DNA from: a virus
Length of the DNA stretch: 64,000 bases
IMG/VR virus record: IMGVR_UViG_3300045012_000181
Location: 61,607-125,606 of that record
Strand: one strand, 5' to 3'
The notes under the pieces are model-generated. The model searched no databases. It had not been told where the DNA came from and saw only the letters and a program-made list of their open reading frames with translations. The position numbers and the translations under genes were made by a program. Shown here one piece after another: positions 916 to 61,466 of this stretch; position 1 is the first letter of the stretch; every line of letters begins with the position of its first letter.

Positions 916-1584
916 ATGAGTTCTCGTCAATCCACAGTTGCCACCAGCGTCAGCCAGAATGCCCTGCAGTATCAGGCGCCTAATGGCTTCGCCGTTGTTC
1001 AAAATGATATCGCTCTGTCTAACCAATCCGGAAATCCGGCTCTTAAAGGCATCGTTAGCGGTTTGGGTACTACGGCGGCCGCCACACAAACCCTACCCAT
1101 CCTTACTTCTTCGGGTGCCAATCATGGCCTCACTAGTTCGGGCACCACGGCCACTTGTACCTTGGGCTCGCCGCATGGCTATGCCATAGGCGCCGGCAGC
1201 ATCACGGCTACTGTAAGTGCCAGCAATGCGGCCTATAACGTAACGGGTGCCACCGTGGCCTTCATAAGCCCTTATGCCTTCACCTATACGACTTCCGGTT
1301 CAAATTTGGCCGTCTCGGATGGCGGCACGGTTGTCATCACCACCCCGGCTTGGAGCACCACGCAGAGCGCCAATCAGGGCTTTAGCCCCCTGCCCGCCGG
1401 TACGGCCGTGGGAACCACGGGCCAGCCCTTCTATGGGGGCATCACGGGTACGACCTTTAATAGTGCCACCACGGGCACGATTGAAACTTGGGGCGATGGT
1501 ACCTTCTGGGATCTGACCAACAACCGAGCCGTCAGTGTAAATGCCCTGGGTTTTGATCCGGCCTTCCAAGGGCACTCGGCCTAG
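916..1584 (+). CDS. Putative virion protein, WxDG-WD-NNR paralog 1, with an inserted beta-barrel (FCCH-like) module
   Basis: C-terminal IETWGDGTFWDLTNNR..FDP shared with three neighbours; TATCTLGSPHGY..AFTY module resembles the one in the 25393 tailspike. Confidence 0.7.
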   Translation: MSSRQSTVATSVSQNALQYQAPNGFAVVQNDIALSNQSGNPALKGIVSGLGTTAAATQTLPILTSSGANHGLTSSGTTATCTLGSPHGYAIGAGSITATVSASNAAYNVTGATVAFISPYAFTYTTSGSNLAVSDGGTVVITTPAWSTTQSANQGFSPLPAGTAVGTTGQPFYGGITGTTFNSATTGTIETWGDGTFWDLTNNRAVSVNALGFDPAFQGHSA

Positions 1585-1614
1585 TTCTAAGTCCAATAAA
1601 AAGGAAAATCAAAT

Positions 1615-1902
1615 ATGGCTTCGCGTCTTACAGCAGTTTCAACAAGTGTTAGTCAGAACGGCAACCAGTATGGTGCCGGTCAGGCCGGGGCTTCTCAGGT
1701 GGATATTTTCCTGAGCCCCGTGCCGGCGCTCAATTTGGGTTCGGCCCTTTCAAACGCCATCCTCGGAACAACCATTCGTGGTAATCTTGTCAGTACCATC
1801 GAGTGCTGGTCTGATGGCGTTGTCTGGGACGTTACAAACACCCGTGCGCTTATTCCCAATTTGGATTACGATCCCAGTTTGCGGATGCGTTCCGGACTTT
1901 AA
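1615..1902 (+). CDS. Putative virion protein, WxDG-WD-NNR paralog 2
   Basis: N-terminus TSVSQN shared with the 916 ORF; IECWSDGVVWDVTNTR..YDP. Confidence 0.75.
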   Translation: MASRLTAVSTSVSQNGNQYGAGQAGASQVDIFLSPVPALNLGSALSNAILGTTIRGNLVSTIECWSDGVVWDVTNTRALIPNLDYDPSLRMRSGL

Positions 1903-1928
1903 AAATCTAACAATCCTGTGAGGGGAAT

Positions 1929-2666
1929 ATGTCAGAAGAAAGTAAAGCACCAGAATTTATCGGTGAAAGCCTTGAAAGTCTTTCTCCAGTAAAGAATAAA
2001 GTTGGTCTAATACTGGGTTTGCCTTTGGGTCGACAGGTGGTTCGTAGGGAATGGGCGCATGCCATGATGACAATTGGCTGGCCGCTTAACATAACCATAA
2101 TGCATAGCGTGGTTACGGATATGGCCATCTCGGATGCCCGGAACCTAATCTGTAAACAGGCACAAGAGGTTGGCGCCAAGTTTATTTGGTTCGTTGATGA
2201 TGATACCGTTGTGCCCTCGGCCAGCATTCGAATGCTCATGTATCAGTTGGAACAGCATCCTGATGTATTGGCCATTGGCGGTATTTATTGTTGCAAGACC
2301 GAACCCACCCAGCCCATGGTCTTTGCGGACTTCGGTGCGGGTTCATACTGGGATTGGACCCTGGGCGAGACCTTCGAGTGCGCGGCCGTTGGAACGGGCT
2401 GCATGTTAATTCGTACGGAACATCTAGAAAAACTACCCCAGCCTTGGTTTAAAACCATCGATGTGGTAGTGCACGGTGACCACCCCGACAGGGCCATTCA
2501 ATGCACGGATGATGTGTATTTCTGTAAGCTGGCCAAACAGGCCGGCCTTAAAATTTTAGCACATGGCGGGGTTCTGTGCCATCACTGGGATATGGAGACC
2601 GGCAAGGTCTACAAACTTCCCGAGGATAGCCTGCCCTACCTAAATAAACAAAAAAAGGAAAAATAA
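1929..2666 (+). CDS. GT-A fold (GT2-like) glycosyltransferase
   Basis: ARNLI..FIWFVDDDTVVP (DxD), GTGCMLI, DDVYFC..A..G.KI.AHGGVLCHH. Confidence 0.85.
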   Translation: MSEESKAPEFIGESLESLSPVKNKVGLILGLPLGRQVVRREWAHAMMTIGWPLNITIMHSVVTDMAISDARNLICKQAQEVGAKFIWFVDDDTVVPSASIRMLMYQLEQHPDVLAIGGIYCCKTEPTQPMVFADFGAGSYWDWTLGETFECAAVGTGCMLIRTEHLEKLPQPWFKTIDVVVHGDHPDRAIQCTDDVYFCKLAKQAGLKILAHGGVLCHHWDMETGKVYKLPEDSLPYLNKQKKEK

Positions 2667-2669
2667 AGT

Positions 2670-3056
2670 ATGGCTATTACAGGACAGACTCTTACTATTC
2701 AGCCTGCTGGCGCGCCCTCATTGACGCCTGCTGGACAGATTGTTTACGGGCCCGGTGACGTACAGGAACCGGCTTTTGTAGCAACTTTTACTTTTATTGG
2801 AGATGGTACTATCACCACCGTGCCAGTCAACTGGATTGACGGCACGCAAACCCTGCCCTTTACCCCAAAGGCCGTTTTGGCCTTCGCAATTCCGGTACTT
2901 TCAGGAAGCGCATCCACCACAGGCGTGTTGCAGGCTGAAGGTTCTTATGCGGCTCCTCGTGTAACCGCCATTTCTAATACCAGTGCCAGCATCGTATATT
3001 CTACGGTTGTGGCCAACAACTCTTCGGCGAGCGTTCTTCTCGTAGTGTATCGTTAA
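2670..3056 (+). CDS. Putative virion structural protein (S/T/A-rich beta protein)
   Basis: Composition and context; FIGDGTITT motif resembles GDxVST in the 14704/15018 ORFs. Confidence 0.65.
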   Translation: MAITGQTLTIQPAGAPSLTPAGQIVYGPGDVQEPAFVATFTFIGDGTITTVPVNWIDGTQTLPFTPKAVLAFAIPVLSGSASTTGVLQAEGSYAAPRVTAISNTSASIVYSTVVANNSSASVLLVVYR

Positions 3057-3080
3057 AGTCTAGGCTAAAGGAGAAAAAAC

Positions 3081-3467
3081 TTGAGCCAAAACTTTAAAGA
3101 TGCGCAGCTTACTTATTTCAACCAAGATCTCCAGCTGCCTAGCAAGGTATATGGAATCTTTCTCACTACGGCCTCGTTGACCTACACCTCGATTGCCACG
3201 GGCGCCACTCAGACCCAAACAACGTCCCTCAGGGGTGTTCGAGCCGTTAGCGGTAGCGGTACACCGCCCAACATCGAACCCGGCGACTTTGTGATTGCCG
3301 TCCCAACAAGCACCTTGGGCACGGGTATCGCACAGGCCGGCTCCTATATCAGTGCGGCCAATACGCTCACTGTGGCCTTAACCGCGGCCGCTACGGCCAC
3401 GCCTGGCGCCATCACCTTCCAGATTTTCATCGTGAAGATGGGCCAGAACGACGCCATCAACAGTTAA
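3081..3467 (+). CDS. Putative capsid decoration-type protein
   Basis: AAGGAG SD with TTG start; PGDFVIAVP..AGSYISAANTLTV pattern. Confidence 0.65.
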   Translation: MSQNFKDAQLTYFNQDLQLPSKVYGIFLTTASLTYTSIATGATQTQTTSLRGVRAVSGSGTPPNIEPGDFVIAVPTSTLGTGIAQAGSYISAANTLTVALTAAATATPGAITFQIFIVKMGQNDAINS

Positions 3468-3468
3468 C

Positions 3469-3741
3469 ATGGGCAGCCGACAAAATCAGGACCCAAAAAC
3501 CAAAGGCACACAGTTCGCTGCGCCTTTGGATAATACTGGAGCCATGATTCAGCAAAATGTCTACTGCAATACCGTGGGGGCCGTTAATAGCGGCCTCCGC
3601 GCTTTGCAAGGCACCACCATCAAGGGCCTTGTTGTCGGTCCCATCGAGAAGTGGGCCGACGGTGCAATCTTCGACACTGCAAACAATCGCTATCTATATG
3701 CCGGAAGTGATTTCGACCCGGCTATTCTAAACAGGGCCTAA
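3469..3741 (+). CDS. Putative virion protein, WxDG-WD-NNR paralog 3
   Basis: GTTIKG..IEKWADGAIFDTANNRYLY..DFDP. Confidence 0.75.
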   Translation: MGSRQNQDPKTKGTQFAAPLDNTGAMIQQNVYCNTVGAVNSGLRALQGTTIKGLVVGPIEKWADGAIFDTANNRYLYAGSDFDPAILNRA

Positions 3742-3743
3742 CT

Positions 3744-3947
3744 ATGTCAAACCGCACAACGCCCACAGATGTCAATTTGACTTTCTATGCCACCAGTACA
3801 TTGCCCGCAGTGGCACCCGGAACCTTCTTGGTGGGAACTTCAGGACAATACCAGGTTTGGTCCGATAGAGCCGTCTGGGACACCACCAACAACGTTTATC
3901 TTTATCCCGGGGTGAATTTCAGCCCCTATGCGCTTTTTGGAGATTAG
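3744..3947 (+). CDS. Putative virion protein, WxDG-WD-NNR paralog 4 (minimal domain)
   Basis: QVWSDRAVWDTTNNVYLYPGVNFSP. Confidence 0.7.
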   Translation: MSNRTTPTDVNLTFYATSTLPAVAPGTFLVGTSGQYQVWSDRAVWDTTNNVYLYPGVNFSPYALFGD

Positions 3948-3955
3948 CAACGACC

Positions 3956-4165
3956 ATGGCACAAGAAATCATAGGTAAACCTACTTCCGGTACGCAAACC
4001 AACGATAACAACAAGGCTGTGCCTAAACCCTCAGCTGCGGACTCGGACAAAAATCAAGCCCTTCCAAAAACTGATATGCAAAACGCCTTCCCTAAGGGGC
4101 CTTTTGGTATTAATAGGCCTGACAAGTCTGGAATAGGGCGCAGTATTTTCGACAAGGAAAGTTAA
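3956..4165 (+). CDS. Hypothetical protein
   Basis: ORF tiles the operon. Confidence 0.55.
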   Translation: MAQEIIGKPTSGTQTNDNNKAVPKPSAADSDKNQALPKTDMQNAFPKGPFGINRPDKSGIGRSIFDKES

Positions 4166-4167
4166 AC

Positions 4168-4902
4168 ATGCCCAAAGAACTTGAAGACAAACTAAAAAAA
4201 CAAGCGGGCAAGCACGGCAATTGGACCGATGAGCACAAGGACGCATATGTATACGGCGCCATGCGCAAGACCGGTTGGAAACCCAAACGGGAACAGCACG
4301 GCTCACTGAACGATATCGTCTTTCATGAAGAGGCCGACGCCAAAATGGGCGATAGGCTCTGTGATGCCTACACACATCCTGTACACAAGGGCTATGAGGC
4401 CTTCACGCCCGGGGAACTAGACCCCCCGGCTATGGACGAGACCGGGGTCTTTACCAAGGGCTCCCAGAGTTGCAACCGAGATGCCGGACAGGGCGTACAC
4501 TTTGGCGCACCAATTGATTTCTTCGGCCCCGATACGGATTACCGGGCCGAAGAAATCGACCCCTCGCAATATGGGCGTTCCTATGAACCCACGCCTTTTC
4601 GCGACTACTTTAAAACAGACGATAAGATGGCCGAACGTTCCTATAGACTTAGGGAACAAGATAAGTATGATACCTCTCCCACACCGGGTGTGGTAACGGA
4701 TAAACAACCAATGTCTGAGGCCTATGGTGCAGTCAATTATCAGGGCGCAGGTCCAGATGGTTGCGACGGGCACAAAGCCGGCGATTGTGACTATCGCAGT
4801 TTTGACAACCAGATAAAATACCTTCGTGCAAACAAGGATGCTCCGGAGTATGACGCCGCCACTTCTGGACTGGACACCAAAATGGGCGAAGATATTGAGT
4901 AA
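4168..4902 (+). CDS. Hypothetical protein with a basic N-terminal domain and acidic, disordered remainder
   Basis: ORF tiles the operon; AAGGA upstream. Confidence 0.7.
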   Translation: MPKELEDKLKKQAGKHGNWTDEHKDAYVYGAMRKTGWKPKREQHGSLNDIVFHEEADAKMGDRLCDAYTHPVHKGYEAFTPGELDPPAMDETGVFTKGSQSCNRDAGQGVHFGAPIDFFGPDTDYRAEEIDPSQYGRSYEPTPFRDYFKTDDKMAERSYRLREQDKYDTSPTPGVVTDKQPMSEAYGAVNYQGAGPDGCDGHKAGDCDYRSFDNQIKYLRANKDAPEYDAATSGLDTKMGEDIE

Positions 4903-4904
4903 AA

Positions 4905-5055
4905 GTTCCCCTTAACGGGGTTCCCTCTAATGAGGGTATATAGAGGGCAATTTTCCGTCCGGCCAAGCCAAGACCCCCTCACCTTGGCGCCACTGAAGTG
5001 GTCAAACCGGCGGATATCCGGGCGCGGCACTCGGGGTACAAAAATGCCGCAAATT
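4905..5055 (+). ncRNA. Candidate structured intergenic RNA
   Basis: Six hairpins in ~150 nt and a possible loop-loop ACCCC/GGGGT pairing; strand assumed from flanking genes. Confidence 0.4.
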
Positions 5056-5068
5056 TTCGAGGTTAAAA

Positions 5069-5344
5069 ATGACCGCTAGTCTATCAGCACCCTATGCCTT
5101 GGTTGGAGAGAAGACGCCCAGCCAGCCGGCCCACCAAAAGAGTCTCCCACCTGGTCCACCGCATGCCTCTATACAGGTCCCTGTTGCTATAGAAACCAAG
5201 CCTGTGACCAAGGCTTCTGTATCCGTCGTAAAGGCCAAGCCCTTAGCTAGTGCGCCTTTGGTGGTGACCAATGTTCCGGCCCTTCCGGCTGAACCCGTGG
5301 TAATCAAGAGTAATCTGCCCGATGTTCCGACAGCGGGCAACTGA
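5069..5344 (+). CDS. Pro/Ala/Val-rich hypothetical protein
   Basis: GAGGT SD; TGATG overlap with the next gene. Confidence 0.55.
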   Translation: MTASLSAPYALVGEKTPSQPAHQKSLPPGPPHASIQVPVAIETKPVTKASVSVVKAKPLASAPLVVTNVPALPAEPVVIKSNLPDVPTAGN

Positions 5345-5745
5345 TGAATCCCACTCTTAAAGCCCAGCGGGATATCCTAGGCGAAATTGCCAGCGAGAAG
5401 GTCATGCTGGTTTGCGGCAAGCACAACTACACGGCTACTCGCAAGCGCGTCAACGGTACGGTTTGCGTTCCGCCCAATACTCGGGGTTGTAAAGAGTGCT
5501 GGAAGGTTTACTATTTTTCGGATTTGGCCCTAACACCGCCTAACAAACGCCAAGAGCGCCTAGACGAACTGGAAGAAGTAATCCACCATGCCGTGGAATA
5601 TGAAACCAAGGGACAGTTCGGTAAGGACTTTGACCTATTCGAGCCCGGTGATTCCCGGTTTGGCGTGGAAGTCGAGAAAGATGCGGCCGACGACCTCACG
5701 GGTGAGGATAAGGTCGCGAATAATAACGAGGAGAAATTGAACTAA
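5344..5745 (+). CDS. Hypothetical protein with putative Zn-binding motif
   Basis: CGKH...CKEC; coupled overlaps at both ends. Confidence 0.7.
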   Translation: MNPTLKAQRDILGEIASEKVMLVCGKHNYTATRKRVNGTVCVPPNTRGCKECWKVYYFSDLALTPPNKRQERLDELEEVIHHAVEYETKGQFGKDFDLFEPGDSRFGVEVEKDAADDLTGEDKVANNNEEKLN

Positions 5746-6062
5746 TGGCAAACCTAAACCCTGGCAACCGTGATGGGCTGCCTGTAGCCGAGAACCGGGC
5801 CCTTCTAGATATCGCAAATAAAGAGGGCTCATTTAACAACGAGAAGGACTTCCGTAATAAGTTGGAGGCCTTTCAGAACCGCTTTAGAGAAAGCAAGCCC
5901 TCCGTTGTGGATGTTAGTTCGGATGCCTCTAAGCTCTTTAGGGCTGACTTGGAGAGTATTCATGCCTTGGCCAGCCTTACGGTGGACCGTGAGGTTAGCC
6001 GTTTGTGTATGGCCATGCTCAGGTGCTTGCAGTATCTGGCACATCGTCAGAACATCGAGTAG
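5745..6062 (+). CDS. Hypothetical protein
   Basis: TAATG overlap, GAGGAG upstream. Confidence 0.65.
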   Translation: MANLNPGNRDGLPVAENRALLDIANKEGSFNNEKDFRNKLEAFQNRFRESKPSVVDVSSDASKLFRADLESIHALASLTVDREVSRLCMAMLRCLQYLAHRQNIE

Positions 6063-38535: not shown

Positions 38536-39930
38536 ATGGCTGACGGCTCCAGTATTGGATACTTTCCAGGGATGTCGCGTCTGATGGGCGAAGTCGACAG
38601 CCCAACGAATGCCCAACCCCTGACCTCGCCGCAATTTGGCGGTTCGCCGGAACAGATGATGGCCTTTTTGCAGAGTCCGCATGTACAGCAGACTCTGCAA
38701 CAGTGGGGCATCAACTTTGATCCCTCAAAGATGCGCCAGAGTCCGTTCTTTCCCAATAGCTTCATGCAGCATCACCCACACCTAGGTGGGGCCATGTCCG
38801 GTGCAATGGCCAATGTTGCGGCCACTCCCGAGGCACCGCTGGTTTCAGGTGCGGGCTCGGGCATGACGCGCGCCATGCAGGGCATGCTGGGCGGCCCGGA
38901 GATGCAACGGCAGTATCAGGTGCGCCAGATGCTGGCGCCCATGCAAGCCATGGGCATGCAGATGCCCGAAGCGGAATTTCAGCGCAAGCAACAACTGCTG
39001 GAGGCCTTGAAACAGGATTTGGATGCCCGAGAGGCCCAGGGTCAGGCCGCGCTTAGACAGCGAGGCGAGGAGCAGCGGCAAAAGAACGAGGCCATCCAAC
39101 CCCGTATCTATCAAGTACCCGGCGGTTATGTAGCCAACCAAGAGATACCAGGTCAGCCTCAAGGTGGCCCATCTGGGGATCAATTTAGCATGCAAGGGCA
39201 ATCACCTATGCGGCCACAGATAGACCCCTCTACAGGACAAGCATGGCTGGCACCCGGGGCAGGCCTAACACCCGAAACACAGACGCAGTGGAATTCGCAG
39301 TTTCATCCCACTGATCCGGCTTTGTTGGCAGCACAGTCGGCTGCAAAAGACCCTCAAAAGGGTGCCTTGGCCAAGAAATACGACGCCCAAGGCAAGGAAA
39401 TTACTGATGAAAACCTTGCGGGCCGTCCGGCGGCCGTAGTGGGCGACATCGGCGCTCAGACAGATCTCCGACGAGCCCAAGCCGGAACCGAGGGGGCCAA
39501 ACAGGGCGCCCTAGGTGCACGAGCCGAACGCGACAGGGCTGCGGCGCAAAATCCCGGTGGGCGCTTTGGACAAGCCGCTAAAGACCGATATGCTCAAGAA
39601 TACAACAGGGCTGAACAACATGCCCAAGATCAAATTAGCCGGGTACAGCAATTGATGCAAATGCCTCCTGACAAGGGAGGTTTAGATAAGGCTACAGGTG
39701 AGGCCCAAATCCAACAGTGGCAGAATTGGCTGGGCACACAAAAAGAAAACATTGATCGCCAGATGGGCAAGCCCGGTCAGAGCGCCCGAGAAGCTGGAAC
39801 ACAGCAGAAGAAGACTACGGATTTGCCTAGGCCCGTTTCACCTGGAGCCAGCCCTAATGGCGGCGTTAGTTCACAGAATCCCAATGTAGCCCTCCCAACG
39901 CCTCCAGCGGCTCCTGAGAACCCCTACTAA
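38536..39930 (+). CDS. Internal virion / ejection protein (Gln/Met-rich)
   Basis: Composition, synteny. Confidence 0.65.
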   Translation: MADGSSIGYFPGMSRLMGEVDSPTNAQPLTSPQFGGSPEQMMAFLQSPHVQQTLQQWGINFDPSKMRQSPFFPNSFMQHHPHLGGAMSGAMANVAATPEAPLVSGAGSGMTRAMQGMLGGPEMQRQYQVRQMLAPMQAMGMQMPEAEFQRKQQLLEALKQDLDAREAQGQAALRQRGEEQRQKNEAIQPRIYQVPGGYVANQEIPGQPQGGPSGDQFSMQGQSPMRPQIDPSTGQAWLAPGAGLTPETQTQWNSQFHPTDPALLAAQSAAKDPQKGALAKKYDAQGKEITDENLAGRPAAVVGDIGAQTDLRRAQAGTEGAKQGALGARAERDRAAAQNPGGRFGQAAKDRYAQEYNRAEQHAQDQISRVQQLMQMPPDKGGLDKATGEAQIQQWQNWLGTQKENIDRQMGKPGQSAREAGTQQKKTTDLPRPVSPGASPNGGVSSQNPNVALPTPPAAPENPY

Positions 39931-39939
39931 GACCTCTGA

Positions 39940-42900
39940 ATGCCTCCACTACCTCAACAACCCGATCAGCAACAAATTCCGCCTCTGCCTTCGACTGATC
40001 CGTTTGAGCAGTCCTATCAAAAGCACAAGGCCGAAATTGAGACTCCACAGGCGCCCCCAAAGGCGCCTGTTTCTCAAGGCGCCGATCCACGTGTGAGCGC
40101 TGACCCCCTTAGGGGCATTCTAGACCCCGTTCAGGTGGACAATGGTATCAAGCGACAGGCCTGGGATGCCTACCACGGGGCCAAGACACCTGAGGAGTTC
40201 CGGAAGTTCTTTGATAACGCCCAACTACCACAGGAAACCAAAAGAGCCCTTTGGAACCTGAAGTTCCAAGCACCTATTGAAACTGTGCAGGGCGCTCAAC
40301 AGGCCATCCAGCAGGCCGCTCCTCAAGAGACCTATCAGCAGTTTGTGGCTAAGAACTATCCAGCTTGGTCTCAGGCCCAGGCTCGTCCAGATGAACCCTC
40401 CGTGCCAATTCCCAGTATGTTTGGAACTCTCAATGTTCCGACATGGCACCAGTTACAAAAGAGCCTGGCACAGGCCCCGCCAAGCGAACAGGAGTGGCAG
40501 GCCCAGAATCAGTTGTGGAATAATCCCCAACAGGCCTTCCAGCAGATGGTCGGACAGATGGCCGCGCACCCGACCCAGACCGCTTTGGGCATGGTTGGTA
40601 CGGCCAGCGGGGCTCCAGAACAGGGAGCCCTGCCCTCCAAGCCCACTGTGGATGTCCAGAGCCTCTTACAGCCCAAGGGTAAGTTTGGCCAGGGCGCCGC
40701 TCAGGGTCTTAGCGAACTAACCAGCCCACAAAATATTGGAATGCTTCTTACAATTCCGGCCGAGCGTTTGATTGGCCTGTATTATAAGGGCCAGATGAGC
40801 TTGGATACCCTTCAACTGGTCAACCAAGCCCGTGCCAAGTATATGGCCGGTGATAATGCCGGTGCGCAGGAACTTCTTGGGCAGGCTGCCGTTACGGGCG
40901 GTATGGTTGCGGGCATGGAAGCCAGTGAACGCACGGGGCGTACGGCCAGTCAAACAACTCCACAGGGCCCCGCACGTGTCTCCGATATGGGCCGCGGGGA
41001 GGGCCAGCAGATGGCCGGTCCGGGAGTTCCCGGGCAGCCCACACCCGTTCAAATCGGGCCCACACAGACCGCCAACGTTGGCGTAGAGGGCGGACCCCGT
41101 CCTAGCATGCAATCCGGTCTTACGGCCGCCCAAGAGGTCACGGGCCGCAGTACGGGTGCCGGTTTGAGGGCTCCCACAAGTGCGCCCATCGAGCGCGGTG
41201 GCACCACGGCTGGTGGTACGGTTGGAACCGTAACGCCCAAGCCATCGACGCTGCCCTTGCACGTGCCGGAACAACGCACGGCCGAACTGGACCGCCGTCA
41301 AACCCTTGATCTGCCGCCGGCCGAGGGCGACCGCCGTTTGCAAGATCGCCGGAACATTAATGATGTGGCCCGGGAACAAATGACCCAGGGCCTGCAGGGA
41401 CAGCCCACACCGGGCCAGCAGCTTGAACAGACCATGCGCCAGGGTCTGCCCAAACCCGGTATTGATGAGGCTCAGGTCTGGCAGTATATTACTCAAAAGG
41501 GCATCAACAATCCGACTTGGTACGCGGAGTGGAAACGCCAGTTTGAGGCTGCTGCGGTTAAGAATCCCAGAAATGGGCCGGGCGAAATGCTCAAGGCCGT
41601 TCAGGCCGAGATGGAGGCCTCTAAGCAGCCCCAAATTCAGGCCCAACCAGTTGCTACACCGCAACCATCGGCCTTAGACAAAGTCCGCCAAATTCAAGGA
41701 GCTCCAACAGATGCCCAAAGGCCGTCCGGGCTTCCCCAAGCCCCGTCCAATGCCCCCGCCGAGCCAACCGGGCCAGGGCAACAGCCCGTTCGAGCAGCCC
41801 AAGCCCCCGCTGGTCCAGCCGGGGAACCCCTACCAGGCACCAAAGAGCCCGTTCGGCTAGCCGCGGCTACGCCGCGTGAACAGCAAACCAAACCGCAACC
41901 CAAGCCCTACGTCCCGCTTCCGCCGGGAGAGCGCCCACGCATGGTCGTGGGACCAAAGGAACCCGTTGGGGGCTCTAAAGAGGCGCCTCCGCCTGGGGCT
42001 ACGGCGCCGTCAGCTCCAGTTGAGATTCCCAAGGCCACACCCCGACCGGCTGGTGCGATGAAGCCCGAGTTGGAGTCTTGGAAGGAAACCCGCCGGACCG
42101 AGGCCCAACAGCGTAATGAGATTCTAAAACAGAACGCCCAAGGTCGAGAGCCTAAGGCCGATAACAGGGGCGAGCTGCACAAGGTCGTGGACCGTTATTT
42201 GAAGAGTCCCGGAGACTCGGCCCGCAGGGGCTTCGAGCTCGACCAGGCCGTGGAGGCCATCCGCAAGCAAGGCCCCGAGGCCATAGAGCGGGAGCATGCC
42301 GAGCTGTCCCAGAAGGCCACCCGAGCGGAGAAGATGGCCGATTGGGGCCACAAGGCCTTGGATAAGGGCGTTGAAGCCTGGGACTTGGAGATGCGCGATA
42401 AGGCCCACGCCGTTAAATTTCCGGCCTATGAGGAAGGCGGAGCAACCTATTTCACTGGCAAGACCACCGATGAGGGCAAACCCGAGGCCCACCTGAAGCC
42501 CTCCCGGGAGTTGCCAGCCGATGAGGCCGAAGCCATCGCCCGTCTGCGCGGGAACACGCTTAAAGAAGTCGGGACGCCCCGAGATGTGCCCGAGGAGGAA
42601 AAGGCCCAGCTTAAAACCTGGGAAGAGAACCGCGATAGGCTTGTGGAGGAGATTCGCAAGCGTGGCGGTAAGGTCACTGAGCAGGCCTACAAGCAGCTAC
42701 AAACATATATCACAGGTATCCAGAGCATCAAGGGCACGCGGTTTATCGTGGCCGGTGGTCCCGAACTAACAAAGGGCCCCGAGGGCGCACTGGAGCGCAC
42801 CGGCACTCGCACCACTCAGCAGATGTGGAACACGTTCCTAGGGCATCCCGAGGGGGCGCACTTTGCCCGCCCCAGCCGGGAACGCGTGGAAACACGCGTG

Positions 42901-57100: not shown

Positions 57101-57257
57101 TTGTTTTCCTTAAAAACCTTAGAAGAGCCTTGGAACAGTCTTGACACAGCTCTTTGTCCACATCAAGAGACAGTCCCTCCAGACTTAAACGACATTGTTC
57201 ACAAAACTCAGGTATGTCTTTAGCACATCTATCACATCTGACTACGGTTTTTCTCAT
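57093..57257 (-). CDS. 54-aa Cys-rich peptide MRKTVVRCDRC...LCQDC
   Basis: ATGA overlap with the polymerase stop; three CxxC. Confidence 0.6.
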   Translation of the reverse strand: MRKTVVRCDRCAKDIPEFCEQCRLSLEGLSLDVDKELCQDCSKALLRFLRKTIE

Positions 57258-59752
57258 TTCGCCTCGCCCCAACTTCCCCCCACACCTGTTTCAACAGGAA
57301 AACTGTAGCCTCCAAACTCTTTCCAAGGCTGCGTAAGAACCTTCTCTAAAACGGTCTTTACCTCATCCACCATATTCAGGGGGGTCTCCAAAACAAAACT
57401 ATCGTGCACAGTTACCAACAGACGAGCCGGATGCGGTAGAGGATGATAAACCTGAACCACCTTTTGAACCTCAGATTCAGGCCAACCGATTCTGTCGTAC
57501 ATCAGGGCAATCATGCAACGGATAAGAATCTCGGCGCCGCAACTTTGAGGGAGGAAAGAAATCGACTCAGTATGGGCGCTGGAAGTGTAGAAAAAACGCT
57601 TGCGCCCGAAGGGATTTGTTAGATAGCCGTCGGCTTTGGCTCGGGCTGCGGTTTCGTTCTGCCAAGCGATGGTTTTGGGATTGGCAGCCTTCCATTTGTC
57701 CACCAGAACTTTTACCTCGGCGTAGGGCAAGTCGTTAATCTTGGCTATCTTCATAGCCCCCTCAGCGTAGTTCAAGCCGTGGGTGACCTTCTTGGCCTTT
57801 GTGTATGGACTGTCTCCTGCGGAATCTTTTACGACTTCATCGTAGGGAATATCAAATAGGGTGCTGGCATTGTATTTATGCTCGGAATAACCAGGTTGTG
57901 CCAACCTATCTAGGCGTTCGTAGTCATTAGACAACAACGCCGTTAGGCGGTTCTCCAGGGAAGCAAAGTCCGAACTTACGATAACCCAATCGTTGTGACT
58001 GGGAACGTAAATATAGCGAGCACTTGCAGGAAGATTTTGAAGATTGGGTCCGCTACTCGATAGTCGCCCCGAGGCAGTTCCATGAACATTAAATGAGGCA
58101 TGAATGCGCTCGACACCGCTGTCCTCCCAGCTCTCCTTCACGAAAGTGCTTAGCAAGCTGGCAATCTGTCTTAGCTGTTGCAGGACTCGCAGGGCCTTGA
58201 GGACTTCGAGGGCTTTGTCGAGTCCGACTTCCTGTTCGTAGGCTTTTCGGGAAGCCGCCCGGATGAGCTTGGGAAGGGCGACCTTGTCAACAGTCGGTTC
58301 ATTCGTCTTCGCATGCGTTTGTACTGGGAGCTTCGCTTTCGCATATAAGTAATCCTTCAGAACCTCAGAGCTCTTCCAAGGCGTAACACTCTCGGTGGAG
58401 TCCGTCATCACATATTTGAGGGGCTTTTTTGTGCGCTCGGACAGAGTTCCAGGAGGCGCCAAAACGCGTTTGCGTATCGGGACCTCCTGGGTCTGTAATT
58501 CCGCTGGAAGTTCGTTCTCCAGCTCTTTTGACTTGTGCTCCAAGTCTGCCCGAACAGTTTTGAGACGGGCGGGATCGATTCGGAATCCGGTTTCGTGCAG
58601 CAGATGGCAGATACGGGCCAAGGGCACTTGGACATTCTGGTACAAATCCAAGAGTCCCTCATTCCGGAGCATTGGCCGCAGTTGCTGGTAAATTTGAAAG
58701 GTCGCGTCACAGTCCCTTATGTTGTAGAGGGTTTCATCGTCGCCGGATAGATGCTTCCAAGCGGTCTTATTAAGCAGGAAGCTTCCAACGAAGCCCAAGC
58801 CATGAGGCATATCAGGGAAGCACAAATGTTCCATAAGCATGCCATCCCACGAATGGAAGTCCTTGGGAGGCTCTATGCCGATGGCCTTGAGACGGGGCAA
58901 ATCGAACTGCTCACCATTCCAAGTTACAATGTCCGTGGCGTTGGCAAAAATACGCTTGAGCTCAGTTAGATAGACGCCCTTTGGGGGCACACTTAATCCG
59001 GTGTACTTTTGGCCGCACAGACCCACCATGGTAATTTCGCCGGTGGTACGGACCGTTTCTATGTCCGTCGCGAATTCCCTGAACTGAAAGGCCCTCACGT
59101 CCTCCAAAGTTGGAGTGGTGTTGTAGTGTTCCGGAGCGAGGTCTAGCGTTTTCGAGAGGTCTTTGACAACCGCTGGGATGTAGCTTTGGTCGCGGGCGAT
59201 ATAGGCCGGGTGCAACGTCGGGACTGTAAGGGGCTCCGGACCGCACGCGGGAACTGCGAGGGGAGAACCGCGCCATCGCATGATTCCAGTTTTTCCGGTG
59301 AGCGCAATAAGGCTCTTATCGCCAAAGCAATCAATCCGAGTCCAATTACGACCAGTGAGAACGGGCTTAACATGGTTGTTCCAGCATTGTTTTAGTGCGG
59401 CTTCCGCCTCTTCCTTCGATATGTAATCTCGTGCATCAGGATCAGTAGGAAAAATATTACCAGGGGGCCTACAACCCAATACGTTGCACTTCGAAACGGT
59501 TGCGCCTTCGACTCCAGCAGCGCGGTATAAACCTCCTGAACGCTTGCCATTTTCACCCTCTTTTCCGAACAGCCAGCCACCGCTCGTGCCCACGAAGGGC
59601 TCGGAGCGCTCGGCCTCAAGTTCACCGGGCGCCTCGCCCACACACAGGCGGCTACCAGCAACCAAATGGGCCGGAACAAAGTTGGAATTCGGGAAGAGCC
59701 GCGCCATGGGACATCCGGCACAGCCTGGAGTTTCACTAACGGTCTTAGGCAA
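57254..59752 (-). CDS. polA: Family A DNA polymerase with N-terminal uracil-DNA-glycosylase-like domain (SPO1-type fusion)
   Basis: CAGCPM/VGEAPG/HPAY UDG motifs; TDIET, WNGEQFD exonuclease; GRLSSSGPNLQN, DFASLENR, KKVTHGLNY, VHDS. Confidence 0.92.
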   Translation of the reverse strand: MPKTVSETPGCAGCPMARLFPNSNFVPAHLVAGSRLCVGEAPGELEAERSEPFVGTSGGWLFGKEGENGKRSGGLYRAAGVEGATVSKCNVLGCRPPGNIFPTDPDARDYISKEEAEAALKQCWNNHVKPVLTGRNWTRIDCFGDKSLIALTGKTGIMRWRGSPLAVPACGPEPLTVPTLHPAYIARDQSYIPAVVKDLSKTLDLAPEHYNTTPTLEDVRAFQFREFATDIETVRTTGEITMVGLCGQKYTGLSVPPKGVYLTELKRIFANATDIVTWNGEQFDLPRLKAIGIEPPKDFHSWDGMLMEHLCFPDMPHGLGFVGSFLLNKTAWKHLSGDDETLYNIRDCDATFQIYQQLRPMLRNEGLLDLYQNVQVPLARICHLLHETGFRIDPARLKTVRADLEHKSKELENELPAELQTQEVPIRKRVLAPPGTLSERTKKPLKYVMTDSTESVTPWKSSEVLKDYLYAKAKLPVQTHAKTNEPTVDKVALPKLIRAASRKAYEQEVGLDKALEVLKALRVLQQLRQIASLLSTFVKESWEDSGVERIHASFNVHGTASGRLSSSGPNLQNLPASARYIYVPSHNDWVIVSSDFASLENRLTALLSNDYERLDRLAQPGYSEHKYNASTLFDIPYDEVVKDSAGDSPYTKAKKVTHGLNYAEGAMKIAKINDLPYAEVKVLVDKWKAANPKTIAWQNETAARAKADGYLTNPFGRKRFFYTSSAHTESISFLPQSCGAEILIRCMIALMYDRIGWPESEVQKVVQVYHPLPHPARLLVTVHDSFVLETPLNMVDEVKTVLEKVLTQPWKEFGGYSFPVETGVGGSWGEAK

Positions 59753-59768
59753 TCAAACTCCTGTTTCT

Positions 59769-60050
59769 AAAAAGTGGACCGACGGGGTGTACGACCTTCT
59801 GGTCCTCTTATCGCAGGTTCCTCAGCCGGTATAAGCTAGCATTGCCGGCAAGATTGCGCCCGGGCGCCCCTAGAATGTCCCCTCGGCCCGAGGGCTTGGA
59901 GGGTCTAGGGGAACTCAAATTCTCGTGGCAGTAACGAGCTCACACAGTCTACAGGGCCTTTTGAGCCCTGTGCGCATACCCTGCGCTACCCCCCGGAGGG
60001 GGTTTGGGGTCGAACCGAAGTAACTGTGCAATACGACATGCCACGAAACC
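59769..60050 (-). ncRNA. Large structured RNA containing a permuted tRNA-like domain (59942-60029)
   Basis: At least 10 helices by inspection; T-arm, closed acceptor hairpin, D-arm and anticodon arm in permuted order. Confidence 0.6.
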
Positions 60051-60052
60051 TG

Positions 60053-60526
60053 TTACAAAATCGGACGTTGTTTCTCAGCAACTCGGATGGCCTCGTCCAG
60101 AGGTTTGCCCATATTAGAAGAACCCCAGCCAAATTTAGTCCCCGAGACGTAGGCCCCGGTATAGGTGGCCTGGATGCCCTCGCGGTACTTCTCCTGTGCC
60201 AGCTGGCGCTCGCGATCCGACTGCCAAGCCAGTATGACGGCCTGCAACTGCCAAGGGTCCGTTGGAACCTGGGCGTCCTCCATGCCCTGTGGGAGCCAGA
60301 TTCCGGCCATCACCCGGGACCACTCGGCATCCCTTGCACGGGCAACCAATCCACGATACATCAGCAGAGATTCCGTGGCGCCCCTCAGCACGCTCCGGCG
60401 GATATCCTGCATCAATTCATGCTGGACCTTCGAGACGTGCTCGAATACGGCCTCGCCTGTTACAAGGTTGGCTACCCTATTGGCCAGCTCTTCAGTTTGC
60501 TGACGTTCGTTTTTTTCTTCGCTCAA
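60053..60526 (-). CDS. Hypothetical helical protein
   Basis: TTGA overlap with the upstream gene. Confidence 0.6.
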   Translation of the reverse strand: MSEEKNERQQTEELANRVANLVTGEAVFEHVSKVQHELMQDIRRSVLRGATESLLMYRGLVARARDAEWSRVMAGIWLPQGMEDAQVPTDPWQLQAVILAWQSDRERQLAQEKYREGIQATYTGAYVSGTKFGWGSSNMGKPLDEAIRVAEKQRPIL

Positions 60527-60705
60527 GCTGTCTCCTGTGTGCTTCTAAAAATTGCGCCGGCGAGGATTTCGCGTTTGTCACCTCGCATGCTGCCCTGTAT
60601 CCCTGCCTCACGGCTTTGAAAAGGGTTGGACAGCGGTAGTCCTCGGGTCGTTGTTCCGAGCACGTGAGAGACTATAATTACCGCGTCTACTATTTCCCAC
60701 TTCAC
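60523..60705 (-). CDS. Small hypothetical protein
   Basis: GGAG SD with GTG start. Confidence 0.45.
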   Translation of the reverse strand: MKWEIVDAVIIVSHVLGTTTRGLPLSNPFQSREAGIQGSMRGDKREILAGAIFRSTQETA

Positions 60706-60719
60706 TCCAGTGGATGCGC

Positions 60720-60995
60720 GCTATTCACGCCACGGCGCTAAAAATTTTGGGACTGTTTAGGCAAGGCACAGTCCCGAGCCTAGTATCTTATTTATAAGGC
60801 GCTAGGATACTTCGCGCCTCTGCTTACGAGCCGTCCCGAAAGCAGATGAAGTAGGACGGCGCGAACCTTGGCAACCGCTGTGTTCGGCAGGTAGAAATTA
60901 GATGCGGAACTCGGCTGCCAGCCCGCAAGATACTCTTTCCTGTCTTAAAGTACGCGGCTTCGTCTGGGACTACGCCGCGCTACCGTGCTGGACCT
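60720..60995 (-). ncRNA. Structured intergenic RNA with H-type pseudoknot
   Basis: Crossing 7-bp stems 60819-25/60840-46 and 60830-36/60854-60; 8-bp hairpin 60749-60775 followed by a T-run on the minus strand. Confidence 0.5.
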
Positions 60996-60998
60996 GTA

Positions 60999-61466
60999 CT
61001 AGGCCGCTGGCTGAATTGAAAAATATTGCAGGCGAGGTCGACCAACTTTTTCCTCGCCATCCTTGATGTAGCGGTTTTCGCTAACGTCCGCCGTGAACTT
61101 ACCAGCACCGTTGCTGGCTAGGCGGTTCAAGGTATCTACAAGTTCCTCACCGGGCTGGTGCGTTCCACCGAGGGCCTTGATGAGCAAACTGGCGGCCTGC
61201 ACGACCCACTTGCCCTTGTCAGGCGTGGGCAAAGAGGCGAAAACATGTCGCTTGGACTGCGGGCCCTCTGTGATTACCAAATCGATGTCCGTGGTGCCGA
61301 CCTGATATGGACTAGGCTTGGCGCCAACCAATCGAAAGGCATAATTTCCCGCGGGAACTTCCGTGCGCTCCGTGGGCTGCGTGTCAACCACGTTCAAATT
61401 CAGGTTGGCCCAGCTGAGCGTTGTACTGCCGTTGCCGTTCGTTTCAGTTTCTGTCATTTGTGGCAT
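60999..61466 (-). CDS. DUF669-like ssDNA-binding protein (putative)
   Basis: VPAGNYAFRLVGA..; follows the AAA_24 ATPase as in Sak4/SSB modules. Confidence 0.6.
   Translation of the reverse strand: MPQMTETETNGNGSTTLSWANLNLNVVDTQPTERTEVPAGNYAFRLVGAKPSPYQVGTTDIDLVITEGPQSKRHVFASLPTPDKGKWVVQAASLLIKALGGTHQPGEELVDTLNRLASNGAGKFTADVSENRYIKDGEEKVGRPRLQYFSIQPAA

Follow-up and report, generated by a model that had tools for sequence, protein, structure and literature searches.

In T4, the gp43 DNA polymerase is under autogenous translational control, with a hairpin operator. The pseudoknot of the gene 32 leader is mentioned in PMC10690425. YrlA RNAs are defined by the order V, T, AS, D of their elements, together with the tertiary bases of tRNA, a GNCGAAN0-1G motif near the 5' end and Ro60 proximity; they are known in 22 phages, and their processing from operon transcripts has been noted (Chen et al. 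2014, PMC4201824). For Thermus phage phiLo, the published account describes a Ro60 protein which binds the phage-encoded, Y-RNA-like Yrl1 and Yrl2 and forms complexes with host PNPase (PMC12135203; PDB 9KOP, 9L5Y). The locus reported here combines features of these systems. It is a gap of ~300 nt without open reading frames (ORFs), on the minus strand, within the replication module of the phage contig IMGVR_UViG_3300045012_000181, an IMG/VR record of 125.6 kb, ~82% complete by estimate. The window, that is, the whole stretch of 64,000 nucleotides analyzed, is its right-hand 64 kb.

We read the gap, with a probability of about 0.6, as a composite of two adjacent RNAs, in preference to one integrated, uniformly "ornate" RNA. 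Element A (60048-59921) is a tRNA-like domain; element B (59916-59776) is a pseudoknotted motif located before the gene of a DNA polymerase. Folded as a whole, the gap reaches a minimum free energy (MFE) of -122.6 kcal/mol, versus -105.8 +/- 5.5 in dinucleotide shuffles (z -3.08; equalled by 0/100 shuffles). A preliminary description had proposed dense, non-coding, sense-strand RNA structure, with a long helix around a tRNA-like fold; this holds, and the listed helices were all found on the minus strand, by sequence check and folding. CCCCTAGA (59911-04) and TCTAGGGG (59874-67) form a stem enclosing CCCTCG/CGAGGG; GCCGG (59849-45) faces CCGGC (59829-25), and GGACC (59805-01) faces GGTCC (59780-76), followed by TTTTT (59773-69), AGGAG (59762-58) and the TTG start (59752). 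The long helix pairs TTTCGTGGCA (60048-60039) with TGCCACGAGA over 10 bp, with one G-U; its 3' arm is at 59930-59921, and not at 59920-11 as first given. In the partition function the pair probability is 0.9-1.0 for the inner eight pairs of this helix, and 0.38 and 0.65 for the outermost two. The hairpins said to compete with it, CTCGT/ACGAG and GAGCTC/GAGTTC, are present in the sequence, but they overlap, sharing CTC, and their ensemble probability is ~0. The switch suggested on this basis is not supported: the predicted occupancy of the competing hairpin is negligible, and none was seen, by eye, in the relatives.

Element B is the part of the gap that recurs in a small clade of phage-like contigs from metagenomes. 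Its anatomy is as follows; coordinates in this and the following lists are those of the window.

59776-59916, minus strand: pseudoknotted polymerase-leader motif (seven members, covariation)
59916-12, minus strand: GAGUU
59911-04/59874-67, minus strand: P1 (CCCC.../...GGGG, variable tip)
59862-59, minus strand: CGGG of J1/2, the first junction, which has the sequence CACCGGGCG
59857-59813, minus strand: P2 (13-45 nt, fully covarying; closing GC/GC, long insert in the window)
59812-05, minus strand: GAUAAGAG, resembling a Shine-Dalgarno (SD) sequence
59805-01/59780-76, minus strand: P3 (4-5 bp)
L3, minus strand: 20-nt loop with AGAA start and (A)CCCGUC end, whose CCCG (59786-83) pairs with CGGG (59862-59)

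The junction CGGG and the CCCG of the P3 loop generate a 4-bp H-type pseudoknot. About 40 unpaired bases are conserved, and the minimal form is of ~95 nt; compact 98-nt forms are found at L086:2765-2862 and L083:2881-2978. The members are the window and six loci (L082, L083, L084, L085, L086 and L090) taken from a set, L082-L091, which was obtained in one scan of JGI metagenome contigs; in all of them the element lies upstream of a UDG-PolA polymerase, on its sense strand. The upstream block common to the relatives, delimited by nhmmer and inspection, corresponds to window 59922-59771. Covariance models built stepwise, R1 and R2, recover the motif in the window, L082, L083, L084, L086 and L090, with E from 1e-16 to 1e-27; R2 misses L085. 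With filters off, the match of the window falls under threshold. MAFFT misaligned the variable stems.

In the six members aligned by the covariance model, standard pairs occupy 97.4% of cells versus 77% in shuffles, and double-sided changes are found in 12/23 pairs; 0/500 shuffles reach any of these measures. When the partner is slid by 1-3 columns, pairing drops to 36-50%. The pseudoknot, which is outside the covariance model, is 100% paired in the same six members: L084 features a compensatory variant, CGGA/UCCG, counted computationally, and a second variant, CGCG/CGCG, was read by eye in L085. The covariance model from homologues, which had been named as a check for the whole gap, thus reveals compensatory changes in 59916-59776, but the relatives lack the cloverleaf half. 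Nucleotide identity between members is 69-73% in the motif, versus 63-70% in the adjoining polymerase coding sequence. The wobble pairs of element B are G-U on the polymerase-sense strand, which speaks for an RNA in this orientation. A hairpin with the loop core GGUGCAAC was also observed at varying positions of the RNA, namely the P1 tip, P2 and the P0 insert described below (L082 2886-2892 and ~2925-2935, the P1 tips of L083 and L086, L085 ~2745-2760); this recurrence suggests a modular hairpin, for protein binding or tertiary contacts.

Element B is single-copy in the phage genome, and lies downstream of a conserved 155-aa gene and upstream of the polymerase. Many polymerase relatives at 60-78% identity are present in the protein database. 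IMG/VR contains no close one, the best being at ~50% identity, and a single-protein scan there gave nothing. By the covariance models, element B was not found in polymerase relatives at 44-50% identity, most of which are without a long leader, or in six related IMG/VR genomes. A pattern for the 3' core had 26 matches in IMG/VR, all due to chance and in coding sequence, and a stricter two-gap pattern had none; 185,000 prokaryote genomes contained neither polymerase relatives nor the motif pattern. No Rfam family matches any member, the 98-nt minimal forms included, and riboswitch aptamer models matched neither the window region (E up to 10) nor the six relatives (E up to 5). Element B is absent from Rfam 15, the comparison having been made with Rfam only and not with the 10,006-candidate catalogue of IMG/VR (PMC10690425). 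Resemblances to T-box, ZTP, ykkC and HDV-like RNAs were considered and discarded, as there is no Rfam match and the topology differs.

Most probably, element B serves the polymerase mRNA as a cis-acting leader: its sense-strand position before the polymerase is invariable, weak non-AUG starts are nearby, it is single-copy, and its junction bases are conserved in the manner of riboswitches or operators, while the stems are variable and covary. As in T4-type operators, the RNA is structured and closely precedes the ribosome-binding site (RBS) of a replication gene, and the gene 32 RNA is also a pseudoknot. There is no similarity of sequence or architecture: element B is larger, with three stems plus the pseudoknot, and has many conserved junction bases. 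By analogy, a T4-type logic is plausible for the control of polymerase dosage, and is consistent with a P3 ending 24 nt before UUG and with weak start codons. H-type pseudoknot riboswitches (preQ1-II, SAM-II, ZTP) share with element B the variable, covarying hairpins, the conserved junctions, the pseudoknot between junction and 3' loop, and the 5' leader position; element B differs in having no Rfam match, a gene context suggesting no ligand, and no conserved platform of the SD-sequestering or terminator type. We infer that both elements would be transcribed in the direction of the polymerase gene, and that element B would set the amount of polymerase made, acting on translation or on mRNA processing and stability. 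It would respond to a protein or a small molecule: a metabolite, the polymerase itself, another phage protein and Ro60 were all considered.

The remaining half of the gap, element A, is organized as listed here.

60039-60048, minus strand: 5' strand of P0 (UUUCGUGGCA), terminal stem of the Y-RNA-like domain, pairing with 59930-59921
59921-59930, minus strand: 3' strand of P0 (UGCCACGAGA)
60031-60038, minus strand: 5' side (UGUCGUAU) of the internal loop leading from P0 to the inner stem; candidate Ro60-binding site
60022-60031, minus strand: 5' strand of the inner stem (UUGCACAGUU), pairing with 59949-59940 (MFE helix list)
59947-60019, minus strand: circularly permuted, tip-closed tRNA-like module (ARAGORN after half-swap; YrlA alignment)
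60019-60003, minus strand: T-arm with loop UUCGACC (UUCGG-UUCGACC-CCAAA)
60002-59989, minus strand: acceptor-like hairpin, C5/G5, with tip UCCG
59988-87, minus strand: U8A9
59986-59972, minus strand: D-arm (GCGC-AGGGUAU-GCGC)
59970-59952, minus strand: hairpin of 7-8 bp with A-rich loop
59951-47, minus strand: UAGAC

The tRNA-like module is enclosed by two perfect 10-bp stems, P0 and 60031-22/59949-40. It retains the tRNA tertiary positions U8, A14, G15:C48, G18G19, U54U55C56, A58 and G53:C61; a single C-A mismatch is found in the T-stem. Between the acceptor halves there is neither discriminator nor spacer; they adjoin directly, as a clean hairpin with a cap. It is not a tRNA in the ordinary sense, a canonical 5'-3' cloverleaf with free acceptor end: ARAGORN makes no call in the native order, and the tRNA model of Rfam does not match. 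When the two tRNA halves are exchanged in silico, ARAGORN at default settings calls a 77-nt tRNA, while 0/300 shuffles give a call. Applied to 128,000 window positions, this half-swap yields compact calls solely at the element A locus; applied to the whole genome (9 million constructs), it finds exactly two loci, element A and one at ~41.7 kb of the genome. Element A shares with permuted tRNA genes, tmRNA, mascRNA and viral tRNA-like structures a T-loop/D-loop elbow, compatible with an L shape, in a non-tRNA context, and the order of its halves is permuted relative to tRNA. In contrast to permuted tRNAs, its loop-closed acceptor excludes aminoacylation and normal RNase P/CCA processing, and there are no signals for splicing or ligation.

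Consensus features of tmRNA, RNase P, SRP and group I had not been recognized in the preliminary description, and none of these models matched. Scanned over 59500-60300, Rfam gave nothing at gathering thresholds and nothing at E up to 10. The absence of a family at Rfam thresholds stands, but a narrow scan of 132 nt around element A puts YrlA first, with T, AS and D aligned at 60020-59972; the match is weak (12.8 bits, E 3.8), is not significant alone, and does not appear in wider scans. Element A has the order of a T stem-loop, an acceptor-like stem-loop and a D stem-loop, with tRNA-invariant bases, by which YrlA is defined (PMC4201824). It resembles YrlA (RF02553) in the terminal stem with internal loop, T-arm, loop-closed AS, D-arm and tertiary positions, as well as in the occurrence of Ro60 in the same genome. 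It differs by an extra hairpin, with A-rich loop, between the D-arm and the closing stem, and by its location in a replication module, directly before a conserved mRNA leader.

The phage encodes a 464-aa Ro60/Rsr orthologue, composed of a TROVE domain (E 1e-18) and a Ro60-type vWA domain, at 1188-2582, minus strand, of L119, a region outside the window (G000:C1:38500-45000). The closest solved relative of the TROVE protein is Ro60 of Thermus phage phiLo (9KOP/9L5Y; E 7.5e-22). The second permuted tRNA-like locus is on the same strand as the Ro60 gene, 620 nt upstream, in an ORF-poor gap of 420 nt (L119 2932-3350, minus strand; ~41.43-41.85 kb of the genome); an ORF of 104 aa called over this gap (L119 3037-3351) is probably not genuine. 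The RNA of this gap (genome 41,664-41,804) matches the Rfam YrlA model at 33 bits, E 2.6e-4, with T, AS and D aligned; this score, too, is under the gathering threshold (33 vs 69 bits). Its position agrees with the Ro60 proximity of YrlA RNAs. Element A aligns to this copy through the core and the subsequent UCAAAA(A)G, and both feature the same layout: outer stem, internal loop (UGYCGUA), inner stem, tRNA mimic. The UGUCGUAU loop is equivalent in position to UGCCGUA of the Ro60-adjacent copy. Because the second locus matches YrlA, and the two copies align and share their layout, element A is read as a diverged YrlA-type paralogue. The cloverleaf half, earlier said to belong to no recognizable class, hence resembles a YrlA-type Y RNA, whose paralogue adjoins the phage's own Ro60 gene.

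The best parallel for element A is YrlA, an RNA tethering Ro60 to a partner via a tRNA-like module. On this analogy element A probably binds either Ro60 or another tRNA-elbow-binding partner, and is probably excised from the replication-module transcript or acts on it. According to the part of the phiLo account used here, phiLo likewise has a phage-encoded Ro60 with RNAs (stem-bulge-stem in phiLo) encoded upstream; these carry a CGAA bulge and, unlike element A, lie only beside the Ro60 gene, and no tRNA-like module or link to a polymerase gene is described in that part (PMC12135203). Two further features of the gap upstream of Ro60 may be recorded: a second perfect T-arm (GUGGGUUCAAACCCCAC) is located 3' of a GCAA-capped hairpin, possibly YrlB-like, and UGCCGUAGA is present in three to four copies.

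The preliminary description saw a single RNA of ~280 nt. In such an RNA the tRNA-like domain and the 3' pseudoknot would fold and act jointly; as an example, a riboswitch-like leader would bear a sensor or docking domain on the P0 arm. That arm argues for it: a stem (P0) stands directly 5' of GAGUU in 7/7 members, and in L084, L085 and L090 it is a long-range helix of 7-10 bp, abutting the motif, around a structured insert of 42-138 nt, which in L090 includes a canonical T-arm. In the window just 4 nt separate P0 from the motif, and neither a promoter nor a convincing terminator is found there. Yet only the 3' ~145 nt (59916-59776) are kept in the relatives, the cloverleaf half being phage-specific. 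The P0 inserts have no sequence relationship to one another, none of the six relatives has the permuted tRNA-like fold, and the P0 of L082, L083 and L086 is a short hairpin, behind which a U-rich linker might just end the transcript of the upstream gene. The architecture of element A is, moreover, self-contained, and a duplicate, unaccompanied by element B, exists elsewhere in the genome. A single functional RNA is therefore unlikely. Compared with Rfam, the P0 insert of L090 has insignificant tRNA-like matches (mascRNA, tmRNA T-arm) and that of L085 none; L085 has a genuine tRNA-Thr(UGU) at 2608-2681, 16 nt before the P0 stem. The site 5' of the leader is a hot spot for structured, often tRNA-like, non-homologous RNA modules.

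A number of observations weigh against the reading of the gap as a YrlA-type RNA followed by a polymerase leader. As for element A, its 12.8 bits are far from the YrlA gathering threshold of 69 bits; the 5' internal loop, GUCGUAUUG (60036-60028), is one core base off GNCGAAN0-1G; and Ro60 is on the same strand but ~80 kb away (121,527-121,654 for element A, 39,687-41,081 for Ro60, in genome coordinates), ~4 kb being the limit applied to YrlA RNAs. Since score, exact motif and Ro60 proximity all fail, formal membership in YrlA is not established. The Ro60-adjacent copy also diverges from GNCGAAN0-1G, carrying GCCGUAGA, and a lineage-specific variant of the Ro60-contact motif is possible in this phage. 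The join used in un-permuting the tRNA halves was initially picked by eye, a concern lessened, not removed, by the genome-wide control. With 1.2 million half-swap constructs, no permuted tRNA-like fold was found in the upstream regions of the six relatives; as no relative carries it, element A could be a recent, possibly decaying duplicate. As for element B, the known members number only seven; the alignment of six of these comes from a model fitted to P1-P3 and so favours those stems, and the L085 copy is more diverged, having been recognized by eye and, in its 3' part, by nhmmer. Inspection found no conserved expression platform, either a terminator or an SD-sequestering alternative; the conserved fold leaves the SD unsequestered. 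In L084 and L086, finally, ORFs are inserted between motif and polymerase.

Three other explanations may be considered. Element B might be a self-cleaving or nuclease-guiding element, which parts upstream structured RNAs from the polymerase mRNA: its many strictly conserved unpaired bases and its pseudoknot are typical of small ribozymes, HDV-like 'theta' ribozymes are located just 3' of phage tRNAs, and directly upstream of the motif lie a Y-like RNA in the window, a tRNA-Thr plus P0 domain in L085 and a T-arm minihelix in L090. No Rfam ribozyme family matches, however; the helix order (hairpin, x, hairpin, y, x', y') is, by eye, unlike the HDV, twister, pistol and hatchet topologies, and L082, L083 and L086 have no tRNA-like element upstream, all of which makes this role decidedly improbable. 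Very improbable is the proposal that element A is non-functional debris, left by tandem tRNA genes (a 3' half plus the next 5' part) or by a decaying duplicate of the Ro60-linked Y RNA. Its absence from the relatives, its location in a ~950-nt insertion specific to the window relative to L086, the T-stem mismatch, the C33, the AAA triplet and the non-canonical 'anticodon' stem of 6 bp, and the weak Rfam score would all fit such an origin, and dimeric tRNAs are able to mimic YrlA matches (Chen et al., PMC4201824). The genome, on the other hand, is without any canonical tRNA genes, the abutting acceptor halves form a clean capped hairpin, tRNA tertiary positions are retained, both enclosing 10-bp stems are intact, and the paralogue has an equally unusual layout.

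That the structure acts as DNA, as single-stranded hairpins of a replication origin or a primase loading site, is hardly credible: the location within a replication module agrees with it, but neither iterons nor an AT-rich block are present, the wobbles are strand-specific (sense-strand G-U is A-C on the other strand), and features such as the compensated pseudoknot and the tRNA/YrlA-like fold belong to RNA. A more far-reaching form of the composite reading, in which the Y-RNA module tethers Ro60 in cis (with host PNPase, RYPER-like) to the replication transcript and so sets the processing or decay of polymerase mRNA, while the leader is a new class of riboswitch or ribozyme, is quite unlikely as a whole.

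The gene served by the putative leader, and its start, are given below.

57254-59752, minus strand: UDG-like, 3'-5' exonuclease and family A DNA polymerase protein, 832 aa, UUG start (Pfam, PHROG)
59750-59773, minus strand: ribosome-binding region, with U-run (59773-69), AGGAG (59762-58) and UUG (59752-50)

In the window UUG is 6 nt past AGGAG, and P3 ends 24 nt before UUG. Among the seven members, starts are UUG in four, CUG in two and GUG in one, never AUG. The N-terminal xPKTVSExxGCxGCP is conserved, and lies upstream of the ATG annotated in the database; the corresponding 817-aa database protein begins 15 codons late (window 59708-59752), losing the conserved GCxGCP (CxxC) N-terminus. The polymerase of L085 is read as three ORFs, of 301, 141 and 544 aa (3001-5934), which fits the presence of an inserted element. 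P3 is followed by a U-run and AGAAACAGGAG. The TTTTTAGAA-SD context is not confined to the polymerase: it is found at one more gene start of the phage, and a context like UUUUUAGAAgCA lies at 60565-60540, before another gene. Because a similar string precedes another gene, the U-run/SD string is taken as the phage's usual RBS context, outside the motif.

GGACC/GGTCC with TTTTT was rejected as a conserved terminator: the stem covaries, but 3/7 members have no T-run after it. In the search for intrinsic terminators P3, with its 20-nt loop, was not called, nor were the P0 equivalents of L086 and L082; calls were made at two places only, CTCGT/ACGAG in the window, where the site is weak, and TTCGG/CCGAG in L083. 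Of the ORFs inserted after the motif, those of L084 (1087-2017) are a 96-aa ORF and an HNH-HTH endonuclease, that of L086 (2865-3008) has 47 codons. Their AUGs are 9 nt (L084) and 7 nt (L086) past P3, without an SD of their own, and the SD-like GAUAAGAG is directly 5' of P3. The arrangement hints at a split SD, which the folding of P3 could present, and is offered as an observation only, not as a mechanism. TTGAGTTCCCC, tried as a repeated promoter, has a single exact copy, with near matches at background level. TTTGAGTTC is mildly enriched genome-wide (5 vs 1 expected), which is not interpretable.

The replication module around the gap comprises a Sak4-like ATPase, the polymerase and a helicase (Pfam, PHROG). 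The gene upstream of the gap is an ORF of 157 aa (60053-60526) with no family match. Farther upstream, at 60999-61466, is the conserved 155-aa gene, 65% identical to the one preceding the motif in L086. Compared with L086, the window carries an insertion of ~950 nt (60053-60998) between this gene and the polymerase leader, containing ORFs of 60 and 157 aa, neither with a family match, and a structured gap of 293 nt. Gene order in L082, L083 and L085 is similar to that of L086, so the window carries an insertion relative to these too. The 293-nt gap (60706-60998, minus strand) is the second structured one in the window; it includes GACGAAG (60964-60958), an exact YrlA-type GNCGAAG, inside a long hairpin, and GGUAGCGC (60984-60977), matching the start of the D-arm of element A. 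It has no Rfam match and no homologue among the compared loci, and is perhaps a further Y-like RNA. By ARAGORN, neither the window nor the whole 125.6-kb contig has a canonical tRNA or tmRNA gene, although the contig bears two or more tRNA mimics.

Neither phage Ro60 nor YrlA-type RNAs are new; what is new is the variant described here, in which a YrlA-like module lies far from the Ro60 gene and abuts a conserved polymerase leader. Diverged, permuted tRNA mimics of this kind are missed by Rfam and ARAGORN, and are recovered by a simple half-swap scan. Among uncultured soil phages, element B constitutes a well-supported structured RNA family beyond Rfam, placed before a core replication gene; compact forms of 98 nt are suited to direct ligand, protein or self-cleavage assays. 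Y-RNA-like tRNA mimics, in a phage encoding Ro60, are not restricted to the Ro60 locus, and the copy in the replication module offers a concrete place to ask what the targets of phage Ro60/Y RNA systems are.

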